A DNA stretch of 64,000 bases from Nannocystis pusilla (GCF_020073745.1 NZ_JAIRAU010000047.1:29990-93989), one strand, 5' to 3'; counted from the stretch's first letter, positions 1 to 64,000 are shown. Program-made: numbers and translations. Notes: generated by a model not told the origin, from the sequence alone.

Positions 1-90
1 CGCGCCCGGGGGCATGTCCTCATCCCGCGTTGCGAGCCCGCGGAGAGGCCCGTACGCGGCCTGGCACAGGGGTTGCTAATAAGCACGGGC

Positions 91-1071
91 ATGTCCCGCC
101 TGCTCGCCCTATCCACGCTATCCCTCGCCCTCTCCGCCTGCGACCCCCAGATCCTCCCCGGCGACCACGGATCGCAGAGGGATGACTTCGGCCGCGAGGG
201 CGAAGCGTGCGCCGCGGACCGGCCGTCGGCGGCCTGTCAGGTCGAGAGCGTCGCGGGCGTCGAATACTGCGTGTATTCGCCCGTGCAGGTCACCTACGTC
301 TGGTCCGCCTGCCTCACCGAGACCTGCGAGGAGGAGGGCGAGACGCGCCCGTGCGAGGAGGGCCTCCAGCACTGCGTGGGCTACGAGGCCGAGCGCAACC
401 GCGTCGAGCTGCGCTGGGGCGCCTGCGTCGAGGAGGACGAGTGCACGCCGGGCGAGTCCAGGTCGTGCGGCCTCGACGAGGGCATCGACATGGGCTGCGT
501 CGCCGACGAGAACGGCCGCGGCGTGTGGGACATCGAGGACTGCAACACCCCGCTGGTCCTCAGCTTCGGCGAGCCGATCGAGTTCGCGCCGGCCTCCGTG
601 GCCGCGGCCGACTTCGACATCCGCGGCGGCGCCGGCAGCTGCGCCCGCGCCGACTGGCCGAGCGCCGCCACGCCGTGGCTCGCCCTCGACCGCGACGGCA
701 ACGGCAGCATCGACGGCGGGCGGGAGCTGTTCGGCAGCGCCACCCGCATGTCCTCGGGGACAGGTCCTCACAACGGCTTCGACGCCCTCGCCGAGCTCGA
801 CAGCGACCGCGACGGCAAGCTCACCGCCGCCGACGCGCGCTGGGGCGAGCTCGTGCTGTGGGCCGACCACGACGGCGACCGGCGCTCGACCGGCTGGGAG
901 ACGCTGCCGCTGGCCAGCTTCGAGATCGTCGAGATCGACCTCGGCTACACCACCCGCCGCGAGTGCGACGCCCGCGGCAACTGCGGCCTCGAGCGCGCCC
1001 GCTTCGTCTACCGCAGCATGGGCCAGGAGCGCTCCGGCGAGGTCGTCGACGTCCGCGTCCAGTGCGAGTGA
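91..1071 (+). CDS. secreted Cys-rich lipoprotein with EF-hand-like calcium-binding loops
   Basis: N-terminus MSRLLALSTLSLALSAC gives a signal peptide plus lipobox. Many Cys. Two DxDxDG-type loops (DRDGNGSIDGG, DSDRDGKLTAAD). The ATG lies inside a GGCATGTCC unit. GC3 is high. Confidence 0.55.
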   Translation: MSRLLALSTLSLALSACDPQILPGDHGSQRDDFGREGEACAADRPSAACQVESVAGVEYCVYSPVQVTYVWSACLTETCEEEGETRPCEEGLQHCVGYEAERNRVELRWGACVEEDECTPGESRSCGLDEGIDMGCVADENGRGVWDIEDCNTPLVLSFGEPIEFAPASVAAADFDIRGGAGSCARADWPSAATPWLALDRDGNGSIDGGRELFGSATRMSSGTGPHNGFDALAELDSDRDGKLTAADARWGELVLWADHDGDRRSTGWETLPLASFEIVEIDLGYTTRRECDARGNCGLERARFVYRSMGQERSGEVVDVRVQCE

Positions 1072-1120
1072 GCCGGCCCGCTGCCCCCGACCCAGGCATC
1101 CGCGCAGGTCGCCCTGCCCG

Positions 1121-1165
1121 GATGCTTGTCCTTTCGGGCGTGCAACATGCCTCTTCGGACATATC
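1121..1165. repeat. array of degenerate RCATGYCC palindromic units (3 units) downstream of the 91..1071 gene
   Basis: Read directly: gcttgtcc-tttcggg-cgtgcaacatgcc-tcttc-ggacatatc. Confidence 0.5.
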
Positions 1166-1358
1166 ATCGTCTTCGCCGGGAGCGCCCGACCGCCGCTCGC
1201 AGACGAGCCCCGTGCGCCTCGCCTCACGCCAACGAACTCCCCCTGGTCGCCCGCCGAGAAAAATTCGCGGTCGCGCAATTTTCCCGGGCACCGCGGCGAC
1301 TTCACGCTCGAACGGCCCACGGCGACCCACCGGCCGCGCCGTTCGAGAGAGATCCGCC

Positions 1359-1856
1359 ATGCCTTCGCTTCGCCCTGCCCTCGCCCGTCCGACCGTCAAG
1401 CTGCGGCTGCTCGCCGCCCTCGGCGGCCTCACCGTCGTCGCCCGCGTCGCCGCCCTCGGCCCGTTCGCGGCCGCGCCGCTCGTCGCCGCCCCGCTGCTCG
1501 CCACCGGCTGCGGCGGGTGCCCGTGGACCAGCAGCTCCGACGCCACCCTCGCGCCCGCCACCGAGTGCCTCGAGATCGAGGTCTCCGACGGGGACCGCCA
1601 CCTCGAGACCGGCGAGGGCGGCTGCGTCGATCCGATCCTCTTCGGCACCAACACCTGCGCCGAGCCCGTGACCTTCGTGGGCGCGAGCTTCGGCGCCGAG
1701 GCCGACATCGTCGTCGCGCCCGGCGAGGCGTTCGAGTTCGCGGTCGGCCTCGGCGAGGGCGAGCACGAGGGTGAGGCCTACAGCTTCGAACTCGACGCCC
1801 TGCGCGGCGACGAGCCCTTCACGGTGTCGTTCCGCACCTTCGAGCCCTGGTCCTGA
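1359..1856 (+). CDS. hypothetical secreted protein
   Basis: ATG at 1359 in the frame of ORF 207..1856. Hydrophobic N-terminal region with a CGGC motif. High GC3. No recognisable domain. Confidence 0.45.
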   Translation: MPSLRPALARPTVKLRLLAALGGLTVVARVAALGPFAAAPLVAAPLLATGCGGCPWTSSSDATLAPATECLEIEVSDGDRHLETGEGGCVDPILFGTNTCAEPVTFVGASFGAEADIVVAPGEAFEFAVGLGEGEHEGEAYSFELDALRGDEPFTVSFRTFEPWS

Positions 1857-1923
1857 GTTCCCCTGCACCCCCGGAGCCACCGCCCCGGCGTCGCCGCTCG
1901 AGGGGGGGGGCAGCGAGCCCTCA

Positions 1924-1947
1924 GGACATGTCCATTAAAACATGCCC
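1924..1947. repeat. GGACATGTCC palindromic unit plus AACATGCCC unit between convergent genes
   Basis: Exact GGACATGTCC at 1924-1933 and aacatgccc at 1939-1947, separated by the AT-rich spacer attaaa. Confidence 0.65.
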
Positions 1948-1970: not shown

Positions 1971-3437
1971 TCACGGCAGCTCGAAGCACCACAGCGTCGA
2001 GCGGTCGATCGTGTTCTTGTAGGCGATGTGCCCGGCCGTCTGCGGCGCGACGCACTGCGAGGGCGCCGACACGAACGGCCGGCAGCTCGACGGCATCGGG
2101 CCGTTGCCGTCGTCGTCCCAGCAGGTCCCCGGCCGCCCGGCGCCGCCGCAGTAGAGGGCGTCCGGGTTGTCGGCGCACGGCTCGCCGACGGGCGCGGGGT
2201 CGATGCCGCTGTTCAGCAGCACCGCCTCGTCGAGGCACAGGTTGTAGCCGCCGCCGCAGTGGGTCCCCTCGGCGCAGCCGGGCGCGTCGGACAGCACGTC
2301 GCAGACCTTCATGCACGTGGGGCCGTCGCCGGGGTTGAGGCAGCGCAGGCCGAGCTCGCAGTCGGAGTCCCACAGCTCGGGGTCGGGGCGGACGCAGGCC
2401 TCGCCCTCGAGCTTCGTCCCGCCGGTGACGCACTCGCCGTCGGAGCCGATCGCGTTGGTCGGCATGCAGAACTGCCCGTCGGGGCAGGCGTCGGCCGCGT
2501 ACGGCGCGCAGCCGTTCGCGCGCCGCACGTCGTACTCGGCCTCCTCGATCCAGTAGCAGGCGCCGCCCTCGACCGGCTCGAGCGCCTCGGTGTCGGGGTT
2601 CGGCGCCATCTCGCGCAGCTCGACGTGGCGCACGACGCCGCGGGTCTGGTGCGGCGTCACCAGCTCGAAGATCTCGAGCTCGCCCGCGACGGCCGTGAGC
2701 ACCTTGGCGTAGGCCTGGTCGACCAGGTCCTCCTGCAGGGTCACCGCCGCATTGCTGGTGGTGACGAAGTTCGTCACGTAGTCGGGGAACGCGTGGTTGG
2801 GATCGGGGTCGAGCGCGTGGACGCCGACGGTGATGTCGCCGGCGAAGAGGATCTGCAGCAGGTCGTACAGCGCCCCGTCGCCGGTCAGGCTCGGGTGCGA
2901 CTCCGGCGTGCGCACCAGCGGCACCATCCACGCGCTGTCGAACTGGTGCTGCTGCTGGCTGAGCAGCTCGATGTCCGCGAGCGACAGGTCGACGCAGTCG
3001 TCGGGCTTCACCGGCCCGCCGGTCTCGGTGTCGCCGGTGCTGGTGGACTCGGTGTCGCCGCCGGTGCTCGTCGAGGTGCTCGTGTCGCCCTCGGTCGTCG
3101 TGTCGCCGGTCGTCGTGTCCGGGCCGGTGTCGGTCCCCGTCGTCGTCGTCGTGCTCGTGATCGCGTCGGTGTCGGTCGCCGTCGTCGTCGTCGTCGTCGT
3201 CGGGTTCGTGGGGTCGGTGACCGTGCCGTCGTCGGTGGTCGGGGCGACGGTGGTGGTCGGGGCGGTGGCGCTGGTGGTCCCCGTCGGTCCGGTCGTGCCG
3301 GTCGGCTCGCTCGTGTCGGTGCCGGTGTCCGTGTCCGTGTCGGTCTCGCTCGCGGTGGAATCACTGCCGTCGTCGCCGCAGGCGACCAGGGACGCCGCGC
3401 TGAATGCGAACAGAGCGCCGGCCGAAAGACGCGGCAT
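1971..3437 (-). CDS. lipoprotein with Thr/Asp/Gly-rich linker and Cys-rich C-terminal domain
   Basis: MPRLSAGALFAFSAASLVAC signal peptide plus lipobox, with the ATG complement at 3435-3437. Long TDT/TTT low-complexity linker typical of myxobacterial lipoproteins. C-terminal half has more than 25 Cys. Confidence 0.6.
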   Translation of the reverse strand: MPRLSAGALFAFSAASLVACGDDGSDSTASETDTDTDTGTDTSEPTGTTGPTGTTSATAPTTTVAPTTDDGTVTDPTNPTTTTTTTATDTDAITSTTTTTGTDTGPDTTTGDTTTEGDTSTSTSTGGDTESTSTGDTETGGPVKPDDCVDLSLADIELLSQQQHQFDSAWMVPLVRTPESHPSLTGDGALYDLLQILFAGDITVGVHALDPDPNHAFPDYVTNFVTTSNAAVTLQEDLVDQAYAKVLTAVAGELEIFELVTPHQTRGVVRHVELREMAPNPDTEALEPVEGGACYWIEEAEYDVRRANGCAPYAADACPDGQFCMPTNAIGSDGECVTGGTKLEGEACVRPDPELWDSDCELGLRCLNPGDGPTCMKVCDVLSDAPGCAEGTHCGGGYNLCLDEAVLLNSGIDPAPVGEPCADNPDALYCGGAGRPGTCWDDDGNGPMPSSCRPFVSAPSQCVAPQTAGHIAYKNTIDRSTLWCFELP

Positions 3438-3710
3438 CAGGTATGTCGAAAAATTGGCAATCATGCGGCGGGGATATAGCGAATCTCCGCCGCGCGCGAG
3501 AGGTGAATGCGTAGACGCGAAAGGGCCCGTGCATGATGCGTGCGACAGGGATCGCATGAACCCCCGCCGCGCGCGCGAGCGCCGGCGAGCCGCTCGCGTC
3601 GCACGGTCGCGCGCTCATCGGCGGCGACAAGCATGAGCCCGCCGGTCCGTCGGCCATCTGGGGCCCGAGGGCCGCGCCTGATGCCACCCCCGTTCCGGCC
3701 CGCGCGAGGC

Positions 3711-4184
3711 CTACGCGGTGGCCCTGTCCCAGTTGCCGAACGGCAGCGGCTTGCCGAGCTCGAGGAAGCTCTTGAGGTTGGACAGGATGCCGGGCCACCC
3801 GCGCGACACGCCCTGCAGCACCTTGCTGCCCGCCGGGAACTGGTCGTGCGTCAGCGTCAGACGGACCATCGCCCCGAGCGGCTTGAGCTCGAACGTCACC
3901 CGCGAGGCCGGCTCGGTCGCCTCGCCGTGGTCGACGCCGAAGGTGTACGAGAGCAGCGTCGGCGCCTCGCAGCGCAGCACCTCGCCGGTGATGTCGGTCT
4001 TGCGGCCCTCGTCGTAGCGGTACACGATCGGCGCGCCCGGCTGCCACGTCGATTCGACCCGGCGCCCGCCCCAGTACTTCTCGGTGAAATCGCCCTGCGT
4101 CAGCGCCTCCCACAGCTTCTCCGCCGTGGTGGCGATGTAGAGCACATACACAAAGCTCGGCTTATCCGTCGTCGTCGTCGTCAT
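3711..4184 (-). CDS. SRPBCC superfamily protein (Activator of Hsp90 ATPase homolog 1-like, AHSA1 domain)
   Basis: 157 aa with the conserved architecture of AHSA1/START-like proteins. Overlaps the 3' end of an ArsR-family gene by 23 nt, the usual arsR-ahsa1 pairing. Confidence 0.75.
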   Translation of the reverse strand: MTTTTTDKPSFVYVLYIATTAEKLWEALTQGDFTEKYWGGRRVESTWQPGAPIVYRYDEGRKTDITGEVLRCEAPTLLSYTFGVDHGEATEPASRVTFELKPLGAMVRLTLTHDQFPAGSKVLQGVSRGWPGILSNLKSFLELGKPLPFGNWDRATA

Positions 4185-4518
4185 GATCGTGGTTCTCCTC
4201 GAGGCTCGTCTTGAGGGCGTGCAGGGCCGCCAGGTGGTGGTGCTGGTACTTGCCGATCCAGCGGGCGTAGATGTCGTGGATCGGCACCGGGTTGAGGTAA
4301 TGCAGCTTCTCCCGCCCGCTGCGGACCACGACCACCAGGCCGGCCGCCTCGAGCACCGCGAGGTGCTTGGCGACCGCCTGGCGCGTCATGTCGAGGTGCT
4401 CGCACAGCGCGTGCAACGTCTGGCCGTTGTCGCAGAACAGCCGGTCGAGCAATTGCCGGCGCGTCGCGTCGGCCAGCGCCTTGAACACCTCGTCCATGCG
4501 GGTGGTCCTATCATGCAA
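4162..4518 (-). CDS. ArsR/SmtB family transcriptional regulator
   Basis: Winged-HTH ArsR signature (ALADATRRQLLDRLFCDNGQTLHALCEHLDMTRQAVAKHLAVLEAAGLV). His/Asp-rich C-terminal tail. Confidence 0.85.
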   Translation of the reverse strand: MHDRTTRMDEVFKALADATRRQLLDRLFCDNGQTLHALCEHLDMTRQAVAKHLAVLEAAGLVVVVRSGREKLHYLNPVPIHDIYARWIGKYQHHHLAALHALKTSLEENHDHDDDDDG

Positions 4519-4530
4519 CCTTTTGGTTGC
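4515..4530. promoter_or_regulatory. candidate ArsR operator: perfect inverted repeat GCAACC-TTTT-GGTTGC just upstream of the arsR start
   Basis: Read directly at 4515-4530. Sits in a locally AT-richer stretch (atcatgcaaccttttggttgcttgtcaagtg) consistent with promoter/operator overlap. Confidence 0.45.
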
Positions 4531-4625
4531 TTGTCAAGTGTCGATCGTTGCGGCACACGGCGCAAGACACGCAACGACCCGGGGCTGCTCCGAGCGCACC
4601 TCCTTCGGATTCGCAGCCGCCCTGT

Positions 4626-4997
4626 TCACTCGCAAGGGGCACAAAGACAACGCGCGCCGTCCTCCGCGATCAAGCAGCCCAGCGAGCACCCGCGCGGGTC
4701 GATCGCCTTGCAGTCCGAGTCACAGGTCCGGCGAGCCCACTGCGCCGATTCGCACACGAGCAACGCCTCACCGTCGAGTTCGCAGCGCCGTTCTCCCTGC
4801 GGCTCGCACGGATCTCCGACCCCCGGCTCGTCGCGCATGGGCGGCTCTCCCGAGGTTTCGGTCGCCTCGTCGGAGGTTCCCGCGGTGCATGCCGCGCAGA
4901 GCGCGAGCACGAGACCGCGGACGCTAGGGGTCGTCACAAACACAGGCCGCTCCGCCCGCAAGAAGGGGATCGCACGTGCCCCCGGCACAGGAGTCAT
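4626..4997 (-). CDS. small Cys-rich secreted lipoprotein (start uncertain)
   Basis: Frame of ORF 4626..5303. Hydrophobic segment RGLVLALCAAC (lipobox) followed by a Cys-rich module (CEPQGERRCELDGEALLVCESAQWARRTCDSDCKAIDPRGCSLGCLIAEDGARCLCAPCE). Start could be ATG 4997 or a GTG near 4922. Confidence 0.4.
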   Translation of the reverse strand: MTPVPGARAIPFLRAERPVFVTTPSVRGLVLALCAACTAGTSDEATETSGEPPMRDEPGVGDPCEPQGERRCELDGEALLVCESAQWARRTCDSDCKAIDPRGCSLGCLIAEDGARCLCAPCE

Positions 4998-5616
4998 CGC
5001 AGGGCTCGAGCACCCACGCACCATCCACGCAGGACACAAGTTCGTCGCCCTCGCAGTGCGCTCGCGTGTCCAATGCACAGGGCGTGCCTTCGAGCGTGCA
5101 ACGGCAGCCGCCACCGTGCAGGAACTCATCGCATCCGAGCGATCGCCGGGCCGGTTCGAGCGCGGCGCATACGTCGTCGCAGCCCAGTACAGCGTACTGG
5201 AGGGTGTCTTGCTGGCAAACGCGGACCTCCTGCTCTGACGCGCATGCCAGCGCGCCCGGCGAACATTCGGGGGCGAACGACTCACACCAGCAGAGCGCTC
5301 CATCGCTCGCTACCTCGCCTGCGAGACACCCCACAGCTCCTCCGCGGTCAGCGCACACCTCGTCGCAGTCGACCAGCGCCCAGACGCGCTCGCTACACTC
5401 CCACAGCGAATGTGCGTCCGCGCACTCCGACACGGCGTATCCACACCCGTCACCCTCGTGTCGCCCGTAATCACCGAGGGGAGCCGGCCCAGGATCTCGG
5501 CACGCGACGAAGGCGAGCCCGAACGCGATGGCCTGCCGACACGCCGCCAGCGCCGAACTCCCCCCGCCACGGTCGAACAGCGGCGTCGGGTCGAACCATT
5601 TCACAGCGGCTCGCAC
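4924..5616 (-). CDS. Cys-rich secreted lipoprotein
   Basis: LAFGLAFVAC lipobox followed by about 30 Cys in repeated CxxC/CD contexts. Confidence 0.5.
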   Translation of the reverse strand: MRAAVKWFDPTPLFDRGGGSSALAACRQAIAFGLAFVACRDPGPAPLGDYGRHEGDGCGYAVSECADAHSLWECSERVWALVDCDEVCADRGGAVGCLAGEVASDGALCWCESFAPECSPGALACASEQEVRVCQQDTLQYAVLGCDDVCAALEPARRSLGCDEFLHGGGCRCTLEGTPCALDTRAHCEGDELVSCVDGAWVLEPCDDSCAGGTCDPLLAGGAACVCDDP

Positions 5617-6839
5617 TCCGACTCTGCGACGGAAGCCGTGAAGACGTAGGTGTCCGTCTCGAATACAACGTCGTCAACCACGATCAGGTCGGGATCTCGC
5701 CTTCCGAAGGCCGTGATGGAGTTACCCGCCGTCACTTCGAAGGGAACCGAGCCGGTGACGTCGACCATGTTCCCGGTGACACGCACCCAGATCGAGCCGG
5801 GAGGGAACTCGACACTGGAGCCGTCGGACATACCTGCCGCCGGGGTGATGAGGTTGATCTCGATGTCCTCGAGGTCCGAGCTTCCGTACACCACGTCCTC
5901 GACCTGGAGGCTCAACGTGTCGATCATGAATACGCAGAGCGGATCGAAGCAGGCGTAGTCGGTTGTTGTGATCGTACCCGAAGCCTGCGGCGCCACGAAC
6001 GCGGCTCCGTCGGTGATCTCGATCTCGCTGTCCTCGACAACGCAAGATTGACGCTCCTTCGTCGGAGGCTGGTTCTTCGCCTCCGTGCAGTTGTCCGTGT
6101 TCGTCTCGAAGTCGATCTCGGCGGACGTACACTTGAGATCGAGGACTGCGTCGGCGAAGCACCCCCCTTTCAACACGCCGAGATCCTGTACACAACCCGC
6201 GCTGCCGAGGTTGAGAGTCACCCCCGAACCGGAATCCGCGACGATTTGCACACACAAGTCGAAGTTCTCCAGCAACTTATCCCGCCAGTACTTTACAGAC
6301 TGGGCGATGTTATCTTCACAAACATTAATTTCGATCTGCGAGGGAGGCGGGGTTCCTTCCGAACACTTGTCGTCGGGAGGATCCAGGATCAATGCCTCAA
6401 ATCGCGCCAGTGCATCGCTACAAGCGGCATGTGCACAGTCGACGAGACAGGCTGCATCGCCTTTCTCTTCTCCTTCCGGATCCGCCTCGATCCCCACCTC
6501 GCAGCACGTTTCGACCCGAGGGCCCTCAGTCGGGTCGTCGGAGTTGAAAGGAATGATGCCATCCGCCCCTTCGGTTTCTTCACTGTCAATCAAGATCACT
6601 TGATTTGACTCGACACTGGGCTCGCAGTCGATCTCGTCTTCGTCGTTGAAGTCACAGACAACGAAGCGCAATTCGCCCTGCACCGCCCCTGCGCAGCCGT
6701 ATCGCTGGCCTGGACCGTCCGTCCCTTCGAACACTTGCTGGGCACAGAGCCCACCGGGAGGGGGCAAATCGGCGATTATCGTCGTCTCACCGACCGTCGC
6801 CCCCGTGGCGACCTCGTCGTCTCCACATCCCCCCAACAT
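5601..6839 (-). CDS. acidic Cys-rich hypothetical protein (no signal peptide found)
   Basis: 412-aa ORF with clearly lower GC than the flanks and an in-frame TGA immediately upstream of the ATG. Asp/Glu- and Cys-rich. Composition suggests a foreign origin. Confidence 0.45.
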   Translation of the reverse strand: MLGGCGDDEVATGATVGETTIIADLPPPGGLCAQQVFEGTDGPGQRYGCAGAVQGELRFVVCDFNDEDEIDCEPSVESNQVILIDSEETEGADGIIPFNSDDPTEGPRVETCCEVGIEADPEGEEKGDAACLVDCAHAACSDALARFEALILDPPDDKCSEGTPPPSQIEINVCEDNIAQSVKYWRDKLLENFDLCVQIVADSGSGVTLNLGSAGCVQDLGVLKGGCFADAVLDLKCTSAEIDFETNTDNCTEAKNQPPTKERQSCVVEDSEIEITDGAAFVAPQASGTITTTDYACFDPLCVFMIDTLSLQVEDVVYGSSDLEDIEINLITPAAGMSDGSSVEFPPGSIWVRVTGNMVDVTGSVPFEVTAGNSITAFGRRDPDLIVVDDVVFETDTYVFTASVAESECEPL

Positions 6840-7114
6840 CGTTCAAGTAAAAAACACGCCGGCACACATCATTGCTCTTACAACATTCCAACGCCCAGTC
6901 GCCATGCTGACCTCCAACAGGAAGATATTCGCAGAGGAGGCTTCGCCCTGCAAGCCCTTTCAGAGAACTCCCGTGTGAGCTTACAGCAGACAGCATAAAC
7001 GACGTTATCCCGCCGGGGAAAATCTGTCACAGCGAGTCGAAGCGCAACTTTGTTGCCCACACCTCGCAGAACCCTCTGGCCAATTACCGCCAGCGAATGC
7101 AAAATCCCGCCGAC

Positions 7115-8233
7115 ATGTCATTCCCCGCGTCGAAAGAATCGGTCCGCACGCCGAAGTGGCCGCGAGTGTGCGGTGGCATCGTCGCACTCGGCTTCGCCTG
7201 CGAGAACGACACACCCGTGCCCGAGAGTGAGCCCGTCGACTCCCCGGACGCCGAGATCGTCTACAGCAGCGAACACATCGACATTGCTCCGCTCGGCTCG
7301 GAAGCGCTGTGCGCCGGCACTCTCGCCATGCTCGACGATCACGTGGAGTACGTCCTCGACATGCTCGAGTTGGGGCTGGAAGAACGCATCACCATCTATC
7401 TCTTCCTGAAGGGGGCCGATGTCCCCATTCGCAAGTGGTGCCGGCAGGATGTCTCGGGATGCGCGCGGGGGACCACGATCTATTCGGTCCTGTCTCTGCT
7501 TCCCCACGAAATCGTGCACGCGATCACCTCAAGCGAGGGGCGCTCCTGGTGGGAGGAAGGTGCAGCCCGCGGGCTCGGCGACCCCTCGACCTTCCCCGAT
7601 CTCCTCACCGGCTGGCAGGCGAACCTGGGCGGCGCCGGGCACCTCTCGCGCTGGCTCATCGAGCGCTTCGGCGGCCGGACCTACATGAATCTCTACGCGC
7701 GCACACCGTACGGGGCCTCGCAGGCGAAGGTCGAAGCGGTCGCCCGGACCGTCCTGGGCCGCGAGTTCGACGACGTGCTCGATGAGTATGCGGCCACCGC
7801 TCCCTTCGTCTACCCCCATCACTGGGAGTGCTACGTGTCGTCCGAGGCGGTCGCCGTGCCGTGGGAGGACGAGTACTGGGAGGTTGAGGTCGACCTCGAC
7901 TGCGATCGGACCGACACGTTCAGCAGCCATGTGGCCATTTACGGCATGCAGATGACCGCTCGCGTGCCCGTGACGCTCCCCGCGAACGGGTCTTATTTTT
8001 TCGTCGCCGATCACCCCGACGCCAACCTTGCCATCCAGCCGTGCGCGAGCGAGCCGCGGACGAAGGTGACCCCGGGCGCCTATTCGTGGCCTCTCGAATT
8101 GCTCGGCGCGGCCGGGGCATCACAGCTCGAGGCCGGGCCTCATGTGCTGCTCGTGCATCTCCCGCCCGGGCCGCCGGCTCACGTCCGTATCATCGCCTAC
8201 CCCGAGATCGGCGAGCAGGGCGCACCGCACTGA
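7115..8233 (+). CDS. putative zinc-metalloprotease lipoprotein (HExxH)
   Basis: MSFPASKESVRTPKWPRVCGGIVALGFAC signal plus lipobox. HEIVH (HExxH) motif at LLPHEIVHAITS. The ATG sits in GACATGTCA, a motif-like context. Confidence 0.5.
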   Translation: MSFPASKESVRTPKWPRVCGGIVALGFACENDTPVPESEPVDSPDAEIVYSSEHIDIAPLGSEALCAGTLAMLDDHVEYVLDMLELGLEERITIYLFLKGADVPIRKWCRQDVSGCARGTTIYSVLSLLPHEIVHAITSSEGRSWWEEGAARGLGDPSTFPDLLTGWQANLGGAGHLSRWLIERFGGRTYMNLYARTPYGASQAKVEAVARTVLGREFDDVLDEYAATAPFVYPHHWECYVSSEAVAVPWEDEYWEVEVDLDCDRTDTFSSHVAIYGMQMTARVPVTLPANGSYFFVADHPDANLAIQPCASEPRTKVTPGAYSWPLELLGAAGASQLEAGPHVLLVHLPPGPPAHVRIIAYPEIGEQGAPH

Positions 8234-8266: not shown

Positions 8267-8304
8267 GAACATGCCGGATCGGACATGTCCTCTTCAACAT
8301 GGCC
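8267..8304. repeat. RCATGYCC unit array (gaacatgcc / GGACATGTCC / aacatggcc) between convergent genes
   Basis: Exact GGACATGTCC at 8281-8290, flanked by degenerate units with 5-nt spacers. Confidence 0.65.
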
Positions 8305-10702: not shown

Positions 10703-10749
10703 GCGCCCGCCGCCGCCCGCGTGCACCTGACCGATCGGGCCTGCTCCAA

Positions 10750-10790
10750 GAACCCTGTCCGCAAGTACCTGTCCGCCAGGACCTGTCCCC
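10750..10790. repeat. three CCTGTCC half-motif units with 13-nt period upstream of gcvH
   Basis: aaccctgtccgc / aagtacctgtccgc / caggacctgtcccc read directly. The gcvH start (ATGTCCGACATC) is also motif-like. Confidence 0.5.
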
Positions 10791-10815
10791 GACCATCCGC
10801 CCCGAAGCCTCCATC

Positions 10816-13440: not shown

Positions 13441-13570
13441 GCGGGGAGCCGGGCCAAGGCGCAAGGAGCCGGGCCGATGCGAGGCGGGCCGATGCGAGGC
13501 GCGGGAGCCGGGCCGATGCGAGGCGGGCCGATGCGAGGCGCGGGAGCCGGGCCGATGCGAGGGCGCGGGG
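13441..13570. repeat. tandem repeat, about 3.3 copies of a 39-bp unit (ggagccgggccgatgcgaggcgggccgatgcgaggcgcg)
   Basis: Read directly. Each unit contains two copies of gggccgatgcgaggc. Confidence 0.7.
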
Positions 13571-13590
13571 CTGCGGAAGAACTGGGTGGG

Positions 13591-13762: not shown

Positions 13763-13884
13763 GATCGTCTCGGGCCCCGCTCGGCGAGACGCGGAGACCG
13801 TCGTGCCGCCGGAATGGTGGTGGCGCTGCTGCTTCTCCCGGTTCTCTTCCCACCCCACGTGTCGTGCACGACGCGACCGAGTCC

Positions 13885-14790: not shown

Positions 14791-14864
14791 GCGCATGTCC
14801 CTGACGGCATGTCCTCACCGACATGTCCTCGTCGACATGTCCTCGATCGCATGCCCCCATGACC
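14791..14864. repeat. array of 5-6 RCATGYCC units with 13-bp period directly after the Atl stop
   Basis: cgcatgtccc-tgac-ggcatgtcc-tcac-cgacatgtcc-tcgt-cgacatgtcc-tcga-tcgcatgcccc-catgacc read directly. Confidence 0.7.
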
Positions 14865-18024: not shown

Positions 18025-18090
18025 GGACATGTCCCTTACGACATGTCCTCCAAAACACTCCCCATCAGACATGCCCCTCAGGACATGTCC
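18025..18090. repeat. array of four GGACATGTCC-type units between pmbA and the 17402..17806 gene
   Basis: ggacatgtccc / cgacatgtcc / agacatgcccc / ggacatgtcc, with two exact GGACATGTCC copies. Confidence 0.7.
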
Positions 18091-23045: not shown

Positions 23046-23128
23046 GAGACATGACCTTCGGGGCATGTCCTGAAGGTCATATCTCGGCAACCATGTCTTC
23101 ACGGACATGTCGTCCATGACATGTCCCC
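23046..23128. repeat. array of 5-6 RCATGYCC-type units in the gap before the histidine kinase gene
   Basis: gagacatgacc / ggcatgtcc / ggtcatatc / ccatgtcttc / ggacatgtcg / gacatgtcccc. Confidence 0.65.
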
Positions 23129-27692: not shown

Positions 27693-27694
27693 TC

Positions 27695-27732
27695 GGTCAT
27701 GTCCCCCAGGGCATGTCCTTTCGAGCATGCCC
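27695..27732. repeat. three RCATGYCC units right after the OmpA-family gene stop
   Basis: ggtcatgtccc-ccagg-gcatgtcc-tttcg-agcatgccc. Confidence 0.65.
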
Positions 27733-28710: not shown

Positions 28711-28793
28711 CGCACCTGTCGCCAGGGCCATGTCCCTAGCGACATTTTTTAAAAGACATGCCCCGGGCGACATGCCCGAGCAGACATGCGCCC
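28711..28793. repeat. array of 6-7 RCATGYCC units with 14-bp period containing an AT-rich anomaly (gacattttttaaaagacatg) between convergent genes
   Basis: cgcacctgtcg / gccatgtccc / gacatttttt / gacatgcccc / gacatgcccg / gacatgcgccc. Confidence 0.7.
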
Positions 28794-32021: not shown

Positions 32022-32023
32022 AG

Positions 32024-32049
32024 GCCCTGTCCTTCGGGACATGTCCCCA
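32024..32049. repeat. two RCATGYCC units (ggccctgtcc / GGACATGTCCCC) between rplC and rlmE
   Basis: Read directly, immediately after the rplC stop. Confidence 0.6.
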
Positions 32050-38787: not shown

Positions 38788-38826
38788 GGGACGTGTCCTT
38801 TTCGACATGCCCCGAAGCACATGACC
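38788..38826. repeat. three RCATGYCC units between convergent genes (gggacgtgtcc / gacatgcccc / cacatgacc)
   Basis: Read directly after the LDLa-lipoprotein stop. Confidence 0.6.
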
Positions 38827-38851: not shown

Positions 38852-40090
38852 TCAGCCGGCGCTCTCGCCGAGGATCCGCCGCACCTCGACCACGTCGGAG
38901 AACGGCCGCGTCTGTCCGCGGCAGACCTGGCCCTCCTCGTGGCCCTTGCCGGCGATGACGACCACGTCGCCGGCGCCGGCCTCCGCGAGCGCACCCGCGA
39001 TCGCCCGCGCCCGATCGAGCTCGATCGTCCACGTCGCCCGCCGGCCCTGCAGGCCCTCGCTCACCATCGCCGCGATCGCGGCCGGGTCCTCGTCGCGCGG
39101 GTTGTCGCTCGTCACCACCGCGACGTCCGCGTGCGCACCCACGGCCTCGCCCATCGGCGCCCGCTTCTCCGGCGTCGAGTTGCCGCCCGCGCCGAACACC
39201 ACGATCACGCGCCCCGCCGCGCCCGCCAGCCGCCGCGCCGTCGCGCACGTGCAAGCCAGCGCGTCCGGCGAGTGCGCGTAGTCGACGGCGATCGTCGGCC
39301 GGCCCGCCCCGTGCAACAGCACCTCGAAGCGGCCCGGCACCACCGGACAGGCCGCGATCCCGTGCACCACCGCGGTCGCGGGCAACCCGGCCGCCAGCCC
39401 CGCGAGCGCGGCCGCCAGCGCGTTCTCGCCGAACACCTCGCCGACCATCCGCGTCGTCAGCACCCCGCCGAGCGCCGTCGCGGCCGGCGACGGCTGCAGC
39501 AGCACGCGCGTCCCCGTCGGTCCGACCTCGATCGCCGCCGCCTCGAGGTCCGCCGCGCGCAGCCGCGGGCCGCGGCCCGGCGCCGCGAACCAGCGCCGCT
39601 CCACGTCGCCGGGGATCGCCTGGTCGACGTACAGCGCGTGCTTGTCGGCCGCGTTGAGCACCGCCGCGCGCCCGGGGCCCAGGTGCATGAACAGCTGGGC
39701 CTTGGCCGCGAGGTAGTGCTCCCAGCTGCCGTGCGTGCCGAAGTGGTCGTCCGAGAGGTTGGTGAACACGCCCAGGTCGAACCGCCAGTTGCGCGCGTAG
39801 CCCTGCGCCAGCGCGTGGCTGGTCGTCTCGATCACCGCGTAGCGACAGCCGCGCGCGTGGGCCCGCTCGAGCGTCGCCACGAAGTCGGCGAACCGCTTGC
39901 CGCGCGGCCACGCCTCGTCGTCGAAGGCCACCCCGAGCGTCGACACCTGCAGCACGTGCAGCGCCGCCGTGCGCACCGCCGCCGCGATCATCCACGTCGT
40001 CGACGTCTTGCCGTTCGTGCCGGTGACCCCGAACGTGAACATCGACTCGGCCCACGGCGCCGCCGCCGCGACCGGGCGCGCGGCGCTCAC
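38852..40090 (-). CDS. Mur ligase family protein (MurE-like central and C-terminal domains, short N-terminus)
   Basis: GVTGTNGKTSTTWMI P-loop, DYAHSPDAL and C-terminal IAGKGHEEGQ, all typical of MurE-type ligases. Only about 20 residues precede the P-loop. Confidence 0.65.
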   Translation of the reverse strand: MSAARPVAAAAPWAESMFTFGVTGTNGKTSTTWMIAAAVRTAALHVLQVSTLGVAFDDEAWPRGKRFADFVATLERAHARGCRYAVIETTSHALAQGYARNWRFDLGVFTNLSDDHFGTHGSWEHYLAAKAQLFMHLGPGRAAVLNAADKHALYVDQAIPGDVERRWFAAPGRGPRLRAADLEAAAIEVGPTGTRVLLQPSPAATALGGVLTTRMVGEVFGENALAAALAGLAAGLPATAVVHGIAACPVVPGRFEVLLHGAGRPTIAVDYAHSPDALACTCATARRLAGAAGRVIVVFGAGGNSTPEKRAPMGEAVGAHADVAVVTSDNPRDEDPAAIAAMVSEGLQGRRATWTIELDRARAIAGALAEAGAGDVVVIAGKGHEEGQVCRGQTRPFSDVVEVRRILGESAG

Positions 40091-40142
40091 GACACGCCCC
40101 TTTCAACATGTCCCATCACACATGCTCCTGACGACATGCCCG
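40090..40142. repeat. four RCATGYCC units between trpF and the Mur ligase gene
   Basis: cgacacgcccc / aacatgtccc / cacatgctcc / gacatgcccg, with 4-nt spacers. Confidence 0.6.
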
Positions 40143-40147: not shown

Positions 40148-40774
40148 TCAGTCGCCGCGGCAGGCCGCCAGCAGCCGCTCGATCGCCGCCCGGTCCTTCT
40201 CGCCGCGGCGGGCGCCGGGCAGCTCGGTGCCGCTGGCGACGTCGAGCCCGGCCGGCCGCACCTGCTGGATCGCCAGGGCCGCGTTGGCCGGCGTGATCCC
40301 GCCGGCCAGCCACACCTCGAGCGGCGCGAGGCGCTGCACCGCCGCGGCGGCCCAGCCCCAGTCGGTCGTCTGGCCGGCGCCGCCGTAGCCGGGCACCGCG
40401 GCGTCGAGCAGCGCGCGGGCCGGGCGGGGCGTCGGCGCCCGCAGCTCGGCCAGCGCCGGTGTGCCGCGGACCACCCACAGGTACGGCAGCCCGAAGCCCG
40501 TCACCTCCTGCGCGCCGACGATCTGCACGAGGTCGAGCTGCAGCACCTCCGCCGCGCGTCGCACCTCTTCGGCCGTCGGCTCGACGAACACCCCGACGAG
40601 CTCGAGCCCCGGCGGCGGCCGCACCTCGGCCAGCAGCGCCTCGGCCGCGGCCAGCGTCAGCCCGCGGCGCGAGCCGCTCCACAGGTTGATCCCGACGGCG
40701 TCGACGCCCAGCTCGGCGCAGGCCGCCAGGTCCTGCGGCCGCGTCACCCCGCACACCTTGAGCTTCACGGACAT
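40148..40774 (-). CDS. trpF: phosphoribosylanthranilate isomerase
   Basis: MSVKLKVCGVTRPQDL ... typical PRAI TIM-barrel sequence. The ATG lies inside an exact GGACATGTCC palindrome. Confidence 0.85.
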   Translation of the reverse strand: MSVKLKVCGVTRPQDLAACAELGVDAVGINLWSGSRRGLTLAAAEALLAEVRPPPGLELVGVFVEPTAEEVRRAAEVLQLDLVQIVGAQEVTGFGLPYLWVVRGTPALAELRAPTPRPARALLDAAVPGYGGAGQTTDWGWAAAAVQRLAPLEVWLAGGITPANAALAIQQVRPAGLDVASGTELPGARRGEKDRAAIERLLAACRGD

Positions 40775-40820
40775 GTCCGAACCTTCCTGTCCCGATCACC
40801 CTGTCCCGGCGAACATGCCC
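40769..40820. repeat. motif array spanning the trpF start and the trpC-trpF gap
   Basis: GGACATGTCCG / ttcctgtcccg / ccctgtcccg / aacatgcccg. Confidence 0.6.
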
Positions 40821-45970: not shown

Positions 45971-46025
45971 GCAAATGCCCCGCCTCCATGCTAGCACTTC
46001 GAGACATGTCCGTTTCGACATGGTC
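45971..46025. repeat. motif array downstream of the Ser/Thr kinase gene
   Basis: gcaaatgcccc / tccatgctagc / gagacatgtccg / gacatggtc. Confidence 0.55.
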
Positions 46026-46036: not shown

Positions 46037-48913
<2,877 letters not shown>

Positions 48914-51680: not shown

Positions 51681-52468
51681 GCGCGCCCGGCTTCAGCGTC
51701 CGCGGCCTCGGCTTCTGGGCCCCCGGCTACCCCGACCTCGCCGCCTGGCAGGCCCGCCCCGACGCCTGTCCCGAAGACCAGAGTGCCACGCCGAAGGCCG
51801 AGCTCTTGCCGCCGATGATGCGCCGGCGCACCAGCCTGCTCACCCGCATGGCCGCCGAGGTCGCGGCCCAGGCCCTGCGCGCCGGCGGCCTCGACCCGAC
51901 CGGCGCCACCCTCGTCTACGGCTCCGTCTACGGCGAGATCCGCACCACCCTCGACCTCCTGGCCGCCCTGCTCGTCGCCGGCGAGCCGCTGTCGCCGACC
52001 AAGTTCCACAACAGCGTCCACAACACCGCCGCCGGCTACGTCTCGATCGCCACCGGCAGCCGGGCCGGCAACGCCGCCCTCTCGGCCGGCCGCTCCACCC
52101 TCGCCATGGGCCTGCTCGAGTGCGCCGCGCTCGTCGCCGCCGGCGAGGGCGACGTCGTGCTCGTCATCGCCGAGGAGCCGCTGCCCGAGCCGCTGGCCGC
52201 CGGCCGCCGCTGGGGCCCGTTCGCCGCCGCCTTCGCCCTGGCCGCGCCTGCCTCTTCAGACATGCCCGCCACGACATGTCGTCTGGAACAGGGCCCCAAC
52301 GACAAGTCCCTCGCGCCAGCACGTCCCGCGCCGGCGTGGCTGGCCGACAACCCGTGCGCCGCCGCGCTCGCGCTGGTCGACGCCCTCGCCGCCGGCGCCC
52401 CCGCCCGCGTCGCCCTCGAGCCGCACCTCGCCGCCGGCTGGCACTGCGGGCTGGGGGCCGGCGCATGA
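51677..52468 (+). CDS. KS-like protein lacking the catalytic Cys (chain-length-factor-like partner)
   Basis: KS N-terminal fold similarity without the TACSS motif. Contains an in-frame motif insertion. ATGA overlaps on both sides. Confidence 0.6.
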   Translation: MSAPGFSVRGLGFWAPGYPDLAAWQARPDACPEDQSATPKAELLPPMMRRRTSLLTRMAAEVAAQALRAGGLDPTGATLVYGSVYGEIRTTLDLLAALLVAGEPLSPTKFHNSVHNTAAGYVSIATGSRAGNAALSAGRSTLAMGLLECAALVAAGEGDVVLVIAEEPLPEPLAAGRRWGPFAAAFALAAPASSDMPATTCRLEQGPNDKSLAPARPAPAWLADNPCAAALALVDALAAGAPARVALEPHLAAGWHCGLGAGA

Positions 52469-56243: not shown

Positions 56244-56336
56244 GCCGCGCGGCTGACCGTCCGGCATGTCCTCTCGGCCAGCCGTTGCCGAGCGCGGGAC
56301 TCGTCGGCCCGAGCGCTCGCGGCGGCCGCACGCCGC

Positions 56337-57332: not shown

Positions 57333-58214
57333 ATGCGGCGCCCCTTCTGTCTCTCGAGCGTCTACCTCCTCGCGGTCCTCGCGCTGTCGGCCCCGTTCAT
57401 CACCGCCTCGCCGCTCGCGCCCGCCGAGCCTGTCCCCGAGGACAGCTGTGCGATCGAGGCCGTCGACCCCGCGCTGCTCGGCGTGTGGCACCGCTTCGAC
57501 GCCCTCGCCGAGGGCGACCGCATGCGCTTCTGGTTCTTCCACGAGGGCGGCTTCGGCCTCTACCGCTACGGCAAGGTCGGCCTGACCAACACCCACAGCT
57601 TCGACTACAGCGCCGAGGGCGGCGTCCTCGAGCTGACCTTCCGCAAGACCGGCGAGCGCCGGCGCGTCCCCTACCGCCTCGAAGACGACGGCGGCCGCAC
57701 CTGGCTGGTCCTCGACGACGACCCGCGCGAGGCCGGCGGCGCCCGCTACTTCAAGGCCCCGGCGGCGGCCACCGGCGCCCCCTGCTTCGACGCCTCCGAG
57801 GACATGTCCCGGGCGACAGGCTCCGAAGGACATGTTCCTGCGGCCAGCGACCGGATCGGCGGGCGGCTGTGGGGCGAGGAGGTCCGCTACGCCACCGGCG
57901 GCATGGGCTTCTCGATCTACCAGCTGCAGCCGCAGGCGATCGACGGCCGCGGCGTCGGCTGGCACCACCGCGGCGACTACGACGAGTGGACCACCGAGAC
58001 CCTCACCTACCGCCAGCGCGGCGACCGGCTGGCGCTGTCGTTCCCGCTGCGCCACGACGGCCTCGAGACCGCGATCACCGTCAGCGGCAGCGGCGACGAC
58101 CGCACGCTCCACCTCGCCGAGGACCCGCGCGACTTCTGGCGCGCCCACACCTACCGCGACATGGGCCCGACCTTCGCCGGCGCCGCCGCCCCGGCCGCCT
58201 GCCTGCCGCAGTAG
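57333..58214 (+). CDS. hypothetical secreted protein
   Basis: Signal peptide MRRPFCLSSVYLLAVLALSAPFITA. Contains an in-frame motif insertion at 57801-57838. Confidence 0.5.
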   Translation: MRRPFCLSSVYLLAVLALSAPFITASPLAPAEPVPEDSCAIEAVDPALLGVWHRFDALAEGDRMRFWFFHEGGFGLYRYGKVGLTNTHSFDYSAEGGVLELTFRKTGERRRVPYRLEDDGGRTWLVLDDDPREAGGARYFKAPAAATGAPCFDASEDMSRATGSEGHVPAASDRIGGRLWGEEVRYATGGMGFSIYQLQPQAIDGRGVGWHHRGDYDEWTTETLTYRQRGDRLALSFPLRHDGLETAITVSGSGDDRTLHLAEDPRDFWRAHTYRDMGPTFAGAAAPAACLPQ

Positions 58215-60631: not shown

Positions 60632-60770
60632 CCGCACCTGTCCCCGCGGACAGGCGCCTCGCCCGCGCGCCTCCACCCGCACATGTCCCTGCGGACAGCC
60701 ACTTCTCGACCCGCTCCGGGCCGCTGCGTGACCTCGGGCTTGCGCTCCCATCCGCCCCCGCGGACAGCGA
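60632..60770. repeat. cluster of CCTGTCC...GGACAGG-type inverted repeats in the hcnB-like to hcnA-like gap
   Basis: cacctgtccccgcggacaggcg, cacatgtccctgcggacagcc and cccccgcggacagcg read directly. Confidence 0.55.
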
Positions 60771-62318: not shown

Positions 62319-62705
62319 GTCGCCGGGATCGGCCCCCCGAATAAACCGGTGCGCTTCGCCATGAACCATCGACCACGCGCGAAATCGGCGGCGCCGCCTC
62401 ACGCGCCACGCGCCATGTGGGCCCGGGTCGCCCCCGCCTGGGCGGCCGTCGCAAGTGGCCTGCGGGCGCCCAGCCGCGCCTTCCGGCCCGGTGGCGGCGA
62501 AAGACCCCGGCGTTTCCCGACTCCCCCGCGGCCCCGCCGAGGCGCCATCACCGGGTTGCGACCGCCTGGTGCGCGTGCCCCTTCGCGGCCGGACTGCGAT
62601 ATCATCTCCGTCCGACCTCCGAGGTGCCATGGGCCCGTGCTTGCCAGCCGAATTTGTTCTGCCCTATCATCGGCGAAACATGCAGCCAGCGAAGGATAGC
62701 GCCCC

Positions 62706-63521
62706 ATGGAAGTGACTTTCTGGGGCACCCGGGGCAGCATTCCAGTTTCCGGGCCGAAGTACGTGGAGTTCGGCGGGAACACCCCCTGCCTTCAGATCGG
62801 GCTCGAGAGCACGACGGACACCATCATCTTCGACTCGGGCTCGGGCATCCGCGAGCTCGGCATCCGCCTCGTACAGACTCGAGCCGCGCACTCGCGCGTC
62901 ATCCACCTGTTTTTGACCCACGCACATTGGGATCACATCCAGGGCTTCCCGTTCTTCCCGCCGGCCTTCATGCCGGACTTCCGGCTCCACATCTACTGCA
63001 CGAAGGACGCGCGCACGATCCTCGACCGCCAGATGTCGACGCCGTTCTTCCCCGTCGGCCTCGACGTGATGGGCTCGACCAAGCTGTTCCACCAGCTGCT
63101 CCCGCAAGAGGTCACGACCATCGCCGAGGCGACGCTGCGCCACATCCCGCTGCCGCACCCGCAGGAGAGCACCGCCTTCCGCATCGACGAGCGCGGCAAG
63201 TCGATCGTGTTCGCCACCGACACCGAGCACGCGCCCGACCACATCAACGAGACGCTGCGTGACCTGGCCGAAGGGGCAGACGTCCTGATCTACGACGCCC
63301 AGTACACCTCCGAGGAGTACAGCGCCGGCAAGCAGGGCTGGGGCCACAGCACCTTCGCCGAGGCCGTCAAGCTGGCCCGCGCGGCTCACGTCCGCAAGCT
63401 CGTGCTCTACAGCCACGACCCGACCCACGACGACGAGATGCTGCGCAAGATCGAGGCGGCCGCGCAGGAGCACTTCCCCAGCACCGTCGCCGCCCGCGAC
63501 GGCATGAAGCTGACGCTCTGA
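62706..63521 (+). CDS. MBL-fold metallo-hydrolase
   Basis: LTHAHWDH (HxHxDH) motif plus downstream His/Asp ligands. 271 aa. Confidence 0.8.
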   Translation: MEVTFWGTRGSIPVSGPKYVEFGGNTPCLQIGLESTTDTIIFDSGSGIRELGIRLVQTRAAHSRVIHLFLTHAHWDHIQGFPFFPPAFMPDFRLHIYCTKDARTILDRQMSTPFFPVGLDVMGSTKLFHQLLPQEVTTIAEATLRHIPLPHPQESTAFRIDERGKSIVFATDTEHAPDHINETLRDLAEGADVLIYDAQYTSEEYSAGKQGWGHSTFAEAVKLARAAHVRKLVLYSHDPTHDDEMLRKIEAAAQEHFPSTVAARDGMKLTL

Positions 63522-63530
63522 CCGCTTGTG

Positions 63531-63560
63531 CTGGCCGCCAGGACATGTCCTCGCGGCCAG
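63531..63560. terminator. 30-bp near-perfect palindrome CTGGCCGC-ca-GGACATGTCC-tc-GCGGCCAG between convergent genes (hairpin, terminator-like)
   Basis: Read directly. Core is an exact GGACATGTCC with 8-bp flanking arms. Confidence 0.45.
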
Positions 63561-63611
63561 GCCAGTCGGTCCTCGCTACGCGAGCTCGGTCCTCGCGCCT
63601 GTCGCTGCCGC

Positions 63612-64000
63612 TCAGGCGACCAGGCGCCCGACCGCGAGCGGCCCCTCGGCCCGCTCGACCTCGATCGACGTCGACCGCCCCAACAGCGCGTCGTCGCCGG
63701 CCGCCAGCACCGTCAATCCGTTGTCCGCGCGGCCGACCAGCAGCCCCGTCCGGCGGTGACGCGAGCGGTGGATCACCGCCGACACCCGCCGGCCGACCTG
63801 CCCCGCCGCGAACGCCTGCTGCTTCGCCGCCGACAACGCCCGCAGCGCCGCCGCGCGGCGCTGCTTGACCGCCGCATCGACCTGCCCCGAAAGACAGGCG
63901 GCGTCCGTCCCCGCCCGCGGCGAGTACGAGAACACGTGCAGGTACGCCAGCGGCAGCGACTCGAGCAGCGCATGGGTGCTCGCGAAGGCCGCCTCCGACT
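63612..64000 (-). CDS. MiaB/RimO/MtaB-family methylthiotransferase, C-terminal part (gene runs off the window)
   Basis: FSYSPRAGTDA motif followed by a TRAM-like C-terminal domain. N-terminal radical-SAM part lies beyond coordinate 64000. Confidence 0.55.
   Translation of the reverse strand, partial: SEAAFASTHALLESLPLAYLHVFSYSPRAGTDAACLSGQVDAAVKQRRAAALRALSAAKQQAFAAGQVGRRVSAVIHRSRHRRTGLLVGRADNGLTVLAAGDDALLGRSTSIEVERAEGPLAVGRLVA

Follow-up and report, generated by a model that had tools for sequence, protein, structure and literature searches.

A genus-specific family of strictly phased palindromic arrays at gene ends in Nannocystis

A 64,000-nt stretch of the Nannocystis pusilla genome (NZ_JAIRAU010000047.1, positions 29990 to 93989; hereafter the window) carries many copies of a 10-bp perfect palindrome, GGACATGTCC, that are strung into short arrays with a strict 14-bp phase and are concentrated downstream of genes. 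These phased arrays are a real, genome-wide and lineage-specific feature of Nannocystis. We favour, while giving it not quite an even chance, the reading that they constitute a genus-specific gene-end stem-loop repeat resembling the repetitive extragenic palindromes (REPs) of other bacteria, one which would grow by 14-bp slippage and act on termination or mRNA decay in both directions.

The window has a GC content of ~72% and a negative GC skew along its whole length. Compared with dinucleotide shuffles, GGACATGTCC is strikingly over-represented, with 10 exact copies against 0.04 expected; sites with at most one mismatch number 28 (1.47 expected), and the shorter motif RCATGYCC is found 57 times (8.7 expected). 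The excess claimed in the original prediction, which had been made on this window alone, is therefore borne out. Its five example arrays were found at the places given and most of the coordinates it listed for exact copies were right, three being 1 to 7 nt off (13669, 14303 and 32038, which should read 13671, 14310 and 32037); its "dozens" of one-mismatch variants came down to 18.

The arrangement of the copies proved more regular than the 13- to 14-bp period first proposed. Distances from one CATG to another peak only at 14, 28, 42 and 56 bp; within the window, 23 distances are of exactly 14 bp, none of 13 and one of 15. The same holds in 38 other Nannocystis loci, with 201 pairs at 14 bp, 111 at 28, 55 at 42 and 20 at 56, as opposed to 3 at 13 and 9 at 15. 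Tandem Repeats Finder likewise reports a period of 14 at 14792-14858, 28754-28794 and 10754-10788. The unit consensus is GG(A/G)CATG(T/C)CC followed by a 4-nt spacer, and the spacers are rich in A+T (42 to 60%, vs 28.5% in the intergenic background) and otherwise near random in sequence. TTTCG, first described as a spacer that often precedes the first unit, is no leader: TTTC belongs to a wide range of 4-nt spacers and accounts for 9 of the 288 counted in the genus.

Two further observations define the building block. The inverted repeat GTCC-N4-GGAC occurs 115 times, compared to 4 to 13 times for other loop sizes between N2 and N9, and the arrays end in half-units, TGxCC at the upstream edge and GGxCA at the downstream edge. 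Given the phase, the N4 loop length and the half-unit edges, the elementary module is best described as a 14-nt inverted repeat, TGTCC-N4-GGACA, joined head to tail without a linker, so that every junction forms the palindromic decamer GGRCATGYCC and the phase is strictly 14 bp. Decamers are rarely solitary: 112 of 119 perfect intergenic copies have an in-phase neighbour. Arrays of two units are the most common (64), followed by those of three (41), four (23), five (18) and six (7). Isolated modules are often lengthened to CCTGTCC-N4-GGACAGG. As a sign of compensatory covariation, the excess of this form is modest (odds ratio ~3) and may simply reflect a subfamily. We also considered that whole arrays might be long palindromes and rejected this, as spacers that are mirror-complementary about the array center are only slightly enriched (mean of 1.32 vs 1.05 of 4 positions).

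Far from being restricted to the window, which would have refuted the original prediction, the three-unit pattern is spread over the chromosomes of seven Nannocystis genomes. One genome per species was scanned for runs of three units with a 14-bp period, and the matches listed include many sites in N. punicea, N. exedens, N. pusilla, N. bainbridge, N. radixulma, Nannocystis sp. RBIL2 and a Nannocystis metagenome-assembled genome. By our own counts the density is 190 to 370 arrays/Mb, which extrapolates to ~2,000 to 4,500 arrays per genome of 11 to 13 Mb. The window itself encodes a TypA protein 97% identical to the representative of a cluster containing named Nannocystis species, with which it has its gene order in common, and its closest relative is N. 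radixulma, with 94 to 96% identity in intergenic DNA. Two more distant "Nannocystis sp." loci from metagenome-assembled genomes carry isolated modules only, and 22-kb samples of Enhygromyxa and Pseudenhygromyxa hold no arrays. It is because seven Nannocystis genomes carry the arrays and these samples none that we consider them both genome-wide and lineage-specific.

The matches to the scan pattern that were inspected outside the genus turned out to be other things. Four in high-GC, non-Nannocystis DNA (L002, L011, L057, L105) are 7-bp tandem repeats, four more (L020, L024, L051, L065) are other short repeat arrays, and the cyanobacterial matches are presumably 7-bp repeats that meet the pattern by chance. 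One of these loci, L065, from a Myxococcales metagenome-assembled genome of 62% GC, has long arrays of a composite 21-bp unit, CATGCCCTCTGAGC plus CATGCCC, at positions 2208-3380, which is a different repeat. In locus L013, three copies of the module CCTGTCC cgaa GGACAG lie 97 bp apart (1437, 1534 and 1631), inside a larger tandem repeat. A phage origin was rejected, since IMG/VR gave 4 isolated two-unit hairpins only. The window has no Rfam 15 match at gathering score, and a literature search on Nannocystis or myxobacterial repeats, REPs, RAYT and terminators returned nothing relevant. For the exact decamer, all of the top-ranked papers listed deal with p53, and essentially with its half-site; GGACATGTCC is indeed the textbook half-site of the p53 response element (RRRCATGYYY). 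Bacteria are not known to have a p53-like protein, and the likeness is a sequence coincidence. As originally suspected, the arrays answer to no family name in the searchable literature, and the family is apparently undescribed.

The arrays occupy a characteristic place relative to genes. By our own codon-usage gene calls, with approximate gap classes, and in a sample in which many loci were chosen for containing an array and orthologous loci are not independent, convergent gaps hold 12 to 20 units/kb (75 to 100% of gaps occupied), co-directional gaps 3 to 4 units/kb (37 to 54%), divergent gaps 0.3 to 1.8 units/kb (14 to 50%) and coding sequence 0.16 to 0.34 units/kb. In six syntenic loci, all 17 convergent gaps are occupied. 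Within the window, 21 of the 41 gaps contain a unit (convergent, 6 of 8; co-directional, 14 of 26; divergent, 1 of 7), so that the claim of arrays in almost every intergenic gap was overstated. The arrays adjoin stop codons: in ~0.5 Mb, 107 genes have an array starting no more than 40 nt past the stop, with some arrays overlapping the TGA, and arrays in co-directional gaps lie a median of ~14 nt behind the stop, vs ~100 nt ahead of the next start. Arrays are also seen between genes of likely operons (trpC-trpF, trpF and the next gene, gcvT-gcvH). A total of 364 kb of called coding DNA contained 16 decamers. Separately, in-phase runs of partial units lie in called coding sequence at 52244-52309, 46922-46973 and 744-767; these may be chance, wrong gene calls or real arrays. 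Taken together, the positional densities and the adjoining stop codons rule out a promoter operator and point to gene 3′ ends, in support of the originally proposed extragenic repeat located after stop codons and between convergent genes.

These densities bear directly on an idea that accompanied the discovery of the repeat, namely, that a global transcription regulator has its operators here. Palindromic, tandem sites are also seen in the met-boxes of MetJ, a ribbon-helix-helix repressor, which consist of short palindromic units abutting at a fixed period, with 2 to 5 or more per site. However, met-boxes sit in the promoters of one regulon, whereas the Nannocystis arrays avoid divergent and promoter gaps, adjoin stop codons and fill convergent gaps genome-wide, and their unit number is not conserved between species. 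We therefore regard the operator idea as a poor fit and give it next to no chance.

While the arrays are found at the same gene ends in the seven genomes, their unit numbers and spacers differ. The array after trpF, for instance, comprises 3 to 4, 5, 4, ~9 or 0 units depending on the genome. That at 27695 is present only in the window and in N. radixulma, indicating a recent gain and that new arrays do arise, and some neighboring spacers and units are identical, which speaks for recent 14-bp duplication. Divergence between the window and N. radixulma, estimated from small samples per site class, is 5.4% at third codon positions and 8.5% in other intergenic DNA, compared with 22% in spacers, 14% in the GGR and YCC flanks and 3.8% in the CATG core. 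Fast array turnover with retained location is thus evident.

In an uncultured relative (locus L136, ENA ERZ1066136), TypA is 88% identical and the gene order is partly syntenic. Here, the 14-bp phase and the positions, such as trpC-trpF, are retained with a core of CCTG[TC]CC that is non-palindromic and has little hairpin potential. The arrays of this locus lie at 2980-3336 and 12566-12624 and include identical neighboring units (CCTGCCCCTTTCGC, twice). CCTG-type arrays also exist in the window, at 10723-10788 and 40783-40806. Their presence in both implies that hairpin formation cannot be the sole constraint.

Pairing of adjacent units, as originally envisaged, is nonetheless possible and supported. 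Nine of 15 regions fold with z-scores of −4 to −7 relative to shuffles on at least one strand, and others do not exceed shuffles. On the C-rich strand, the folding of several arrays is poor. Stable tetraloops of the UUCG or GNRA type show no enrichment when read in the sense direction, and loop sequences vary widely. Canonical intrinsic terminators were rejected as an explanation, T-runs being absent after the arrays except at 28712-28749 and in its orthologues; between 20 and 40 kb of the window, 8 canonical terminators were found with 4.4 expected, which is not above chance. At the exception, 28712-28791, the terminator stem (28712-28749) is kept in 7 species, and units 4 to 6 are followed by UCUUUU, serving the opposite gene. 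In all Nannocystis species, and in Pseudenhygromyxa (L130), a canonical GC-hairpin and T-run terminator lies directly downstream of typA (~36017-36060 in the window; also in L122 to L127), showing that the genus does use ordinary intrinsic terminators at some genes. Term-seq in Streptomyces, also of >70% GC, found a U-rich motif at about one-quarter of transcript 3′ ends, and the U-lacking ends are genuine (PMC8780764).

The arrays also have a polarity. On the C-rich strand, ~72% of units have an intact YCC half and ~36% an intact GGR half. In 74 of 82 arrays, the better-kept half lies on the strand predicted by local GC skew, regardless of the direction of the upstream gene, and across 39 loci array polarity correlates with GC skew (Spearman −0.63). 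The sign of the skew switches along the chromosome of N. pusilla in a manner consistent with two replichores. Copies of the heptamer C[AC]TG[TC]CC separated by exactly 14 bp number 16 pairs on the plus strand of the window, with no such pair on the minus strand. Transcript sense leaves a mark as well, in that stem mismatches (counted per position) compatible with G·U pairing in the sense RNA number 126 vs 30 where the sense strand is G-rich and 81 vs 78 where it is C-rich. These strand effects fit selection for RNA pairing and, equally, replication- or transcription-linked C-to-T deamination on hypermutable DNA.

Two further candidate functions were rejected. Rho-loading (rut) sites would account for one strand being C-rich, yet the orientation of the arrays ignores gene direction. 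The core matches RCATGY, the NspI site; a link to restriction-modification is not borne out by coding DNA, where CATG is not avoided (observed/expected, 1.21). As an aside, CTAG is nearly absent from the coding sequence of all Nannocystis loci, with 4 observed vs 249 expected (ratio, 0.02).

The position of the arrays, the pairing of units, the half-unit edges, the AT-rich N4 spacers, the terminator at 28712 and the saturated convergent gaps together fit a REP-like gene-end stem-loop element. Lying within the 3′ ends of transcription units, the palindromic lattice would allow RNA of either strand to fold into stem-loops, in one of two registers: 5- to 7-bp stems across the AT-rich 4-nt spacer or 10-bp stems between neighboring decamers. 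For both of two converging genes, such stem-loops may cause RNA polymerase to pause or terminate and may keep 3′ exonucleases at bay; between operon genes they could attenuate or stabilize transcripts. Slipped-strand mispairing would let the arrays gain and lose 14-bp steps.

Several observations sit uneasily with a stem-loop function. Several arrays, for example 10750-10795, 40095-40147 and 40765-40826, show no folding advantage over shuffles on one strand or both, and none of 49 co-directional arrays is followed by a run of four or more T. There is no compensatory covariation within arrays, C-A combinations occurring at the frequency expected of independent changes. The arrays that interrupt the trp and gcv gene strings cannot terminate transcription efficiently. 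The uncultured relative keeps phase and positions with its non-palindromic CCTGYCC core. A hairpin by itself would not demand so fixed an N4 length or 14-bp phase, and the spacers are of seemingly random sequence. Lastly, polarity tracks GC skew rather than gene direction, and the sense-strand G·U bias could as well come from transcription-linked deamination.

Several of these features, specifically the strict 14-bp phase, the half-unit edges, the lack of a U-tract, the replication-strand polarity and the lack of compensatory covariation, had not been foreseen when the repeat was first noticed, and they keep a sequence-specific protein partner a live possibility. The uniform sequence over thousands of sites similarly calls for either such a partner or a dispersal mechanism. 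Ranked second is a double-stranded DNA lattice on which a dimeric protein would bind in phase, one dimer per TGTCC-N4-GGACA 14-mer or per decamer, giving three sites per four helical turns and marking the ends of transcription units as a roadblock, a topological insulator or a recruiter of gyrase. Conserved 5-bp half-sites, a strictly fixed AT-rich spacer of 4 otherwise random bp and the lack of compensatory changes are the classic signature of recognition by a dimer, whether of DNA or of the RNA stem-loop; one motif is used over thousands of sites in seven species, decamers are hardly ever alone, as cooperative binding would require, and arrays persist despite poor hairpin potential. We consider this lattice unlikely. 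Against it, no candidate protein was found, half-sites and spacers evolve faster than neutral proxies, unlike conserved operators, and the G·U bias of the sense strand is meaningless for double-stranded DNA binding unless purely mutational. Nor are bacteria known to place binding arrays with such a phase at almost all of their gene ends. The hairpin and dimer-recognition readings are compatible with each other, as they are for REPs.

The fast turnover invites a third explanation, a selfish or neutral hairpin minisatellite whose 14-bp module spreads, amplifies by slippage and is tolerated downstream of genes. Unit numbers that vary by species, hypervariable spacers and array frequencies falling steadily from two to six units are what it would predict, as are the runs of identical units in four loci (L124, L126, L127, L136), the decay of units without compensation and the strand bias of that decay, which fits hypermutable DNA. 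A tolerated passenger is hard to reconcile, however, with the 75 to 100% occupancy of convergent gaps, with arrays that stay at the same gene ends across the genus despite sequence turnover, and with a phase that is retained though the spacers are saturated with substitutions; moreover, new sites such as 27695 need dispersal beyond slippage. We judge this explanation to be unlikely too.

A bolder proposal combines polarity and recognition: a replication-polar lattice, read by a dedicated Nannocystis protein on double-stranded DNA or as a UGUCC-N4-GGACA stem-loop in RNA, identical whichever strand is transcribed, that marks nearly every transcription-unit end. We regard it as rather improbable.

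A replication-oriented DNA signal akin to KOPS or Chi, or a DNA uptake sequence, packed where coding and promoter constraints are absent, would make sense of the 74 arrays oriented by local skew and of the sign changes of that skew along the chromosome. On the G-rich strand, the CCCTGCCC variant of the uncultured relative reads GGGCAGGG, which matches the Escherichia coli KOPS consensus GGGNAGGG, and Neisseria uptake sequences are often paired in terminators. Against this, signals such as KOPS, Chi and uptake sequences occur singly, dispersed and frequently within coding DNA, whereas the coding density of the arrays is ~50- to 100-fold below that of convergent gaps; the polarity, furthermore, is quantitative (72 vs 36% of halves intact) and fits strand-biased C-to-T deamination. 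Such a signal appears very improbable.

How, then, do the arrays compare to known repeats? Closest are the REP or bacterial interspersed mosaic elements (BIMEs; palindromic units, PUs) and the REPINs of Enterobacteria and Pseudomonas, which likewise are abundant, species-specific extragenic palindromes, located after stop codons and between convergent or operon genes; they too occur in clusters and can fold into stem-loops. Functions attributed to REPs include mRNA stabilization, termination, binding of gyrase and IHF, and effects on translation when within ~15 nt of the stop codon. High copy number and exclusion from coding DNA are common to both (190 to 370 arrays/Mb; 0.16 to 0.34 vs 12 to 20 units/kb). 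Differences are just as clear: the Nannocystis unit is a 14-nt module with a 10-bp perfect palindrome and stems of 5 to 10 bp, rather than an imperfect palindrome of 20 to 40 nt; units run head to tail at exactly 14 bp, in contrast with alternating inverted copies and variable linkers; the flank profile of the arrays has half-units only, without a GTAG or CGTC tag; and array polarity tracks the replication strand. The arrays are not known to have a RAYT, the Y1 transposase whose gene is flanked by REPs, and in a weak test a crude RAYT motif had no match in ~0.65 Mb of Nannocystis DNA, ~5% of one genome's worth. Failing on unit size, inverted arrangement and tag, the arrays are a REP-like relative and not a member of the REP/BIME family.

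Other systems share single traits. The DNA uptake sequences (DUS) of Neisseria, the inverted pairs of uptake signal sequences (USS) of Haemophilus and TRIT of Mycobacterium tuberculosis also reuse one short sequence genome-wide as arms of gene-3′-end hairpins. In contrast with the Nannocystis arrays, DUS and USS are non-palindromic, tied to DNA uptake and common inside genes, where the Nannocystis decamer is infrequent (see above), and neither they nor TRIT form phased direct arrays. The cyanobacterial HIP1 (GCGATCGC) is likewise a short perfect palindrome, hugely over-represented in one lineage and of unresolved function; it occurs as dispersed single copies, including in coding DNA, whereas the Nannocystis copies are intergenic, paired and phased. 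KOPS and Chi have replication-strand orientation in common with the arrays and differ in being dispersed single copies. Finally, clustered regularly interspaced short palindromic repeats (CRISPR) with variable spacers come to mind by name, yet an identity was rejected on repeat and spacer size and locus number: the Nannocystis repeats are 10 bp (CRISPR, 23 to 47) and the spacers 4 bp (21 to 72), with 2 to 6 units at hundreds of loci per Mb and no leader.

The individual arrays of the window are listed in Table 1.

Table 1. Arrays and isolated units of the 14-bp repeat in the window (z, folding z-score relative to shuffles; dG, predicted RNA folding energy)
Feature	Coordinates	Strand	Context	Folding and conservation
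2-unit array GGACATGTCC atta AAACATGCCC	1924..1947	.	convergent gap	dG −15.5 (+), −25.3 (−); z −4.5, −7.0
3-unit array	8267..8304	.	convergent gap	
CCTGTCC-type array, 3 clear units, up to 5 in phase	10723..10788	+	between gcvT-like and gcvH-like genes	weak hairpin potential, z ~−0.8 to −1.0
5-unit array	14791..14856	+	start 7 nt past stop codon 14782-14784	z −4.0
5-unit array, one unit decayed	18025..18090	+	adjoins stop of minus-strand gene 18105-19454	z −5.7, −6.2
6-unit array	23047..23126	+	past stop of gene 21630-23039	units 1 and 3 pair via spacers
3-unit array	27695..27732	+	2 nt past stop of OmpA-like gene	
6 units	28712..28791	.	convergent gap	units 1-3 form a 15-bp-stem hairpin, then TTTTTT (28744-28749); canonical terminator
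Hairpin GGCCCTGTCC ttcg GGACATGTCC	32023..32046	.	1 nt past ribosomal protein L3-like gene	kept in all 7 species
3-unit array	38789..38826	+	convergent gap, LDL-receptor-repeat gene/Mur-ligase gene	all 7 species, 2 to at least 5 units
4-unit array	40090..40141	+	gap between minus-strand genes, trpF and (downstream) a Mur-ligase-like gene	0 to ~9 units in other species
4-unit mixed CATG/CCTG array	40769..40820	+	between trpC and trpF, within trp gene string	
2-unit array	46002..46025	.	past stop of minus-strand kinase-like gene 46037-49012	
Single CGGCATGTCC unit	56262..56271	+	convergent gap	
3 in-phase units, middle one decayed	57800..57837	.	within called coding stretch; gene call uncertain	
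Two isolated stem-loop modules, CCTGTCC ccgc GGACAGG and CATGTCC ctgc GGACAGC	60634..60702	.		
Single decamer centering a 26-bp near-perfect palindrome	63533..63558	.	convergent gap	dG −24, −26.5; z −3.3, −4.6

Two copies of GGACATGTCC have a setting of their own. Positions 13550-13822 and 14168-14440 are 273-nt inverted copies of each other, 90% complementary and 345 nt apart, and each is a palindrome of ~215 bp centered exactly on GGACATGTCC (13671 and 14310). One arm of this pair has a predicted RNA folding energy of −185 kcal/mol. Further tandem repeats lie around and between the copies, with units of 39 bp (13457-13562), 67 bp (13883-14016) and ~61 bp (14025-14181), and no further copy of the 273-nt element was seen in any fetched locus. 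Next to the array at 38789, tandem repeats of 105 to 108 bp (38507-38767) encode Cys/Asp-rich modules, and the orthologue in locus L121 is a match to Pfam Ldl_recept_a; the LDL-receptor class A domain is typical of eukaryotes. Lastly, the GC content drops to 0.61 to 0.67 between 4000 and 8000, vs ~0.72 to 0.75 elsewhere, and our codon-usage caller found no gene at 4498-5600 and 6276-7165, which may be foreign DNA or have atypical codon usage.

Should Nannocystis use the arrays as its default gene-end signal, we would learn from them how transcripts are ended and protected almost without U-tract terminators in a bacterium with >70% GC and a genome of 11 to 13 Mb. In the engineering of natural-product clusters from myxobacteria, they could then also serve as a compact terminator or insulator that works in both directions, and array copy-number variation could aid strain typing. 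With their 14-bp phase, polarity and turnover, the arrays offer a natural case for separating structure-, protein- and mutation-driven evolution of REP-like elements. Should the lattice prove to be read by a dedicated protein, it would represent a new bacterial gene-boundary system, replacing most canonical terminators in one genus.

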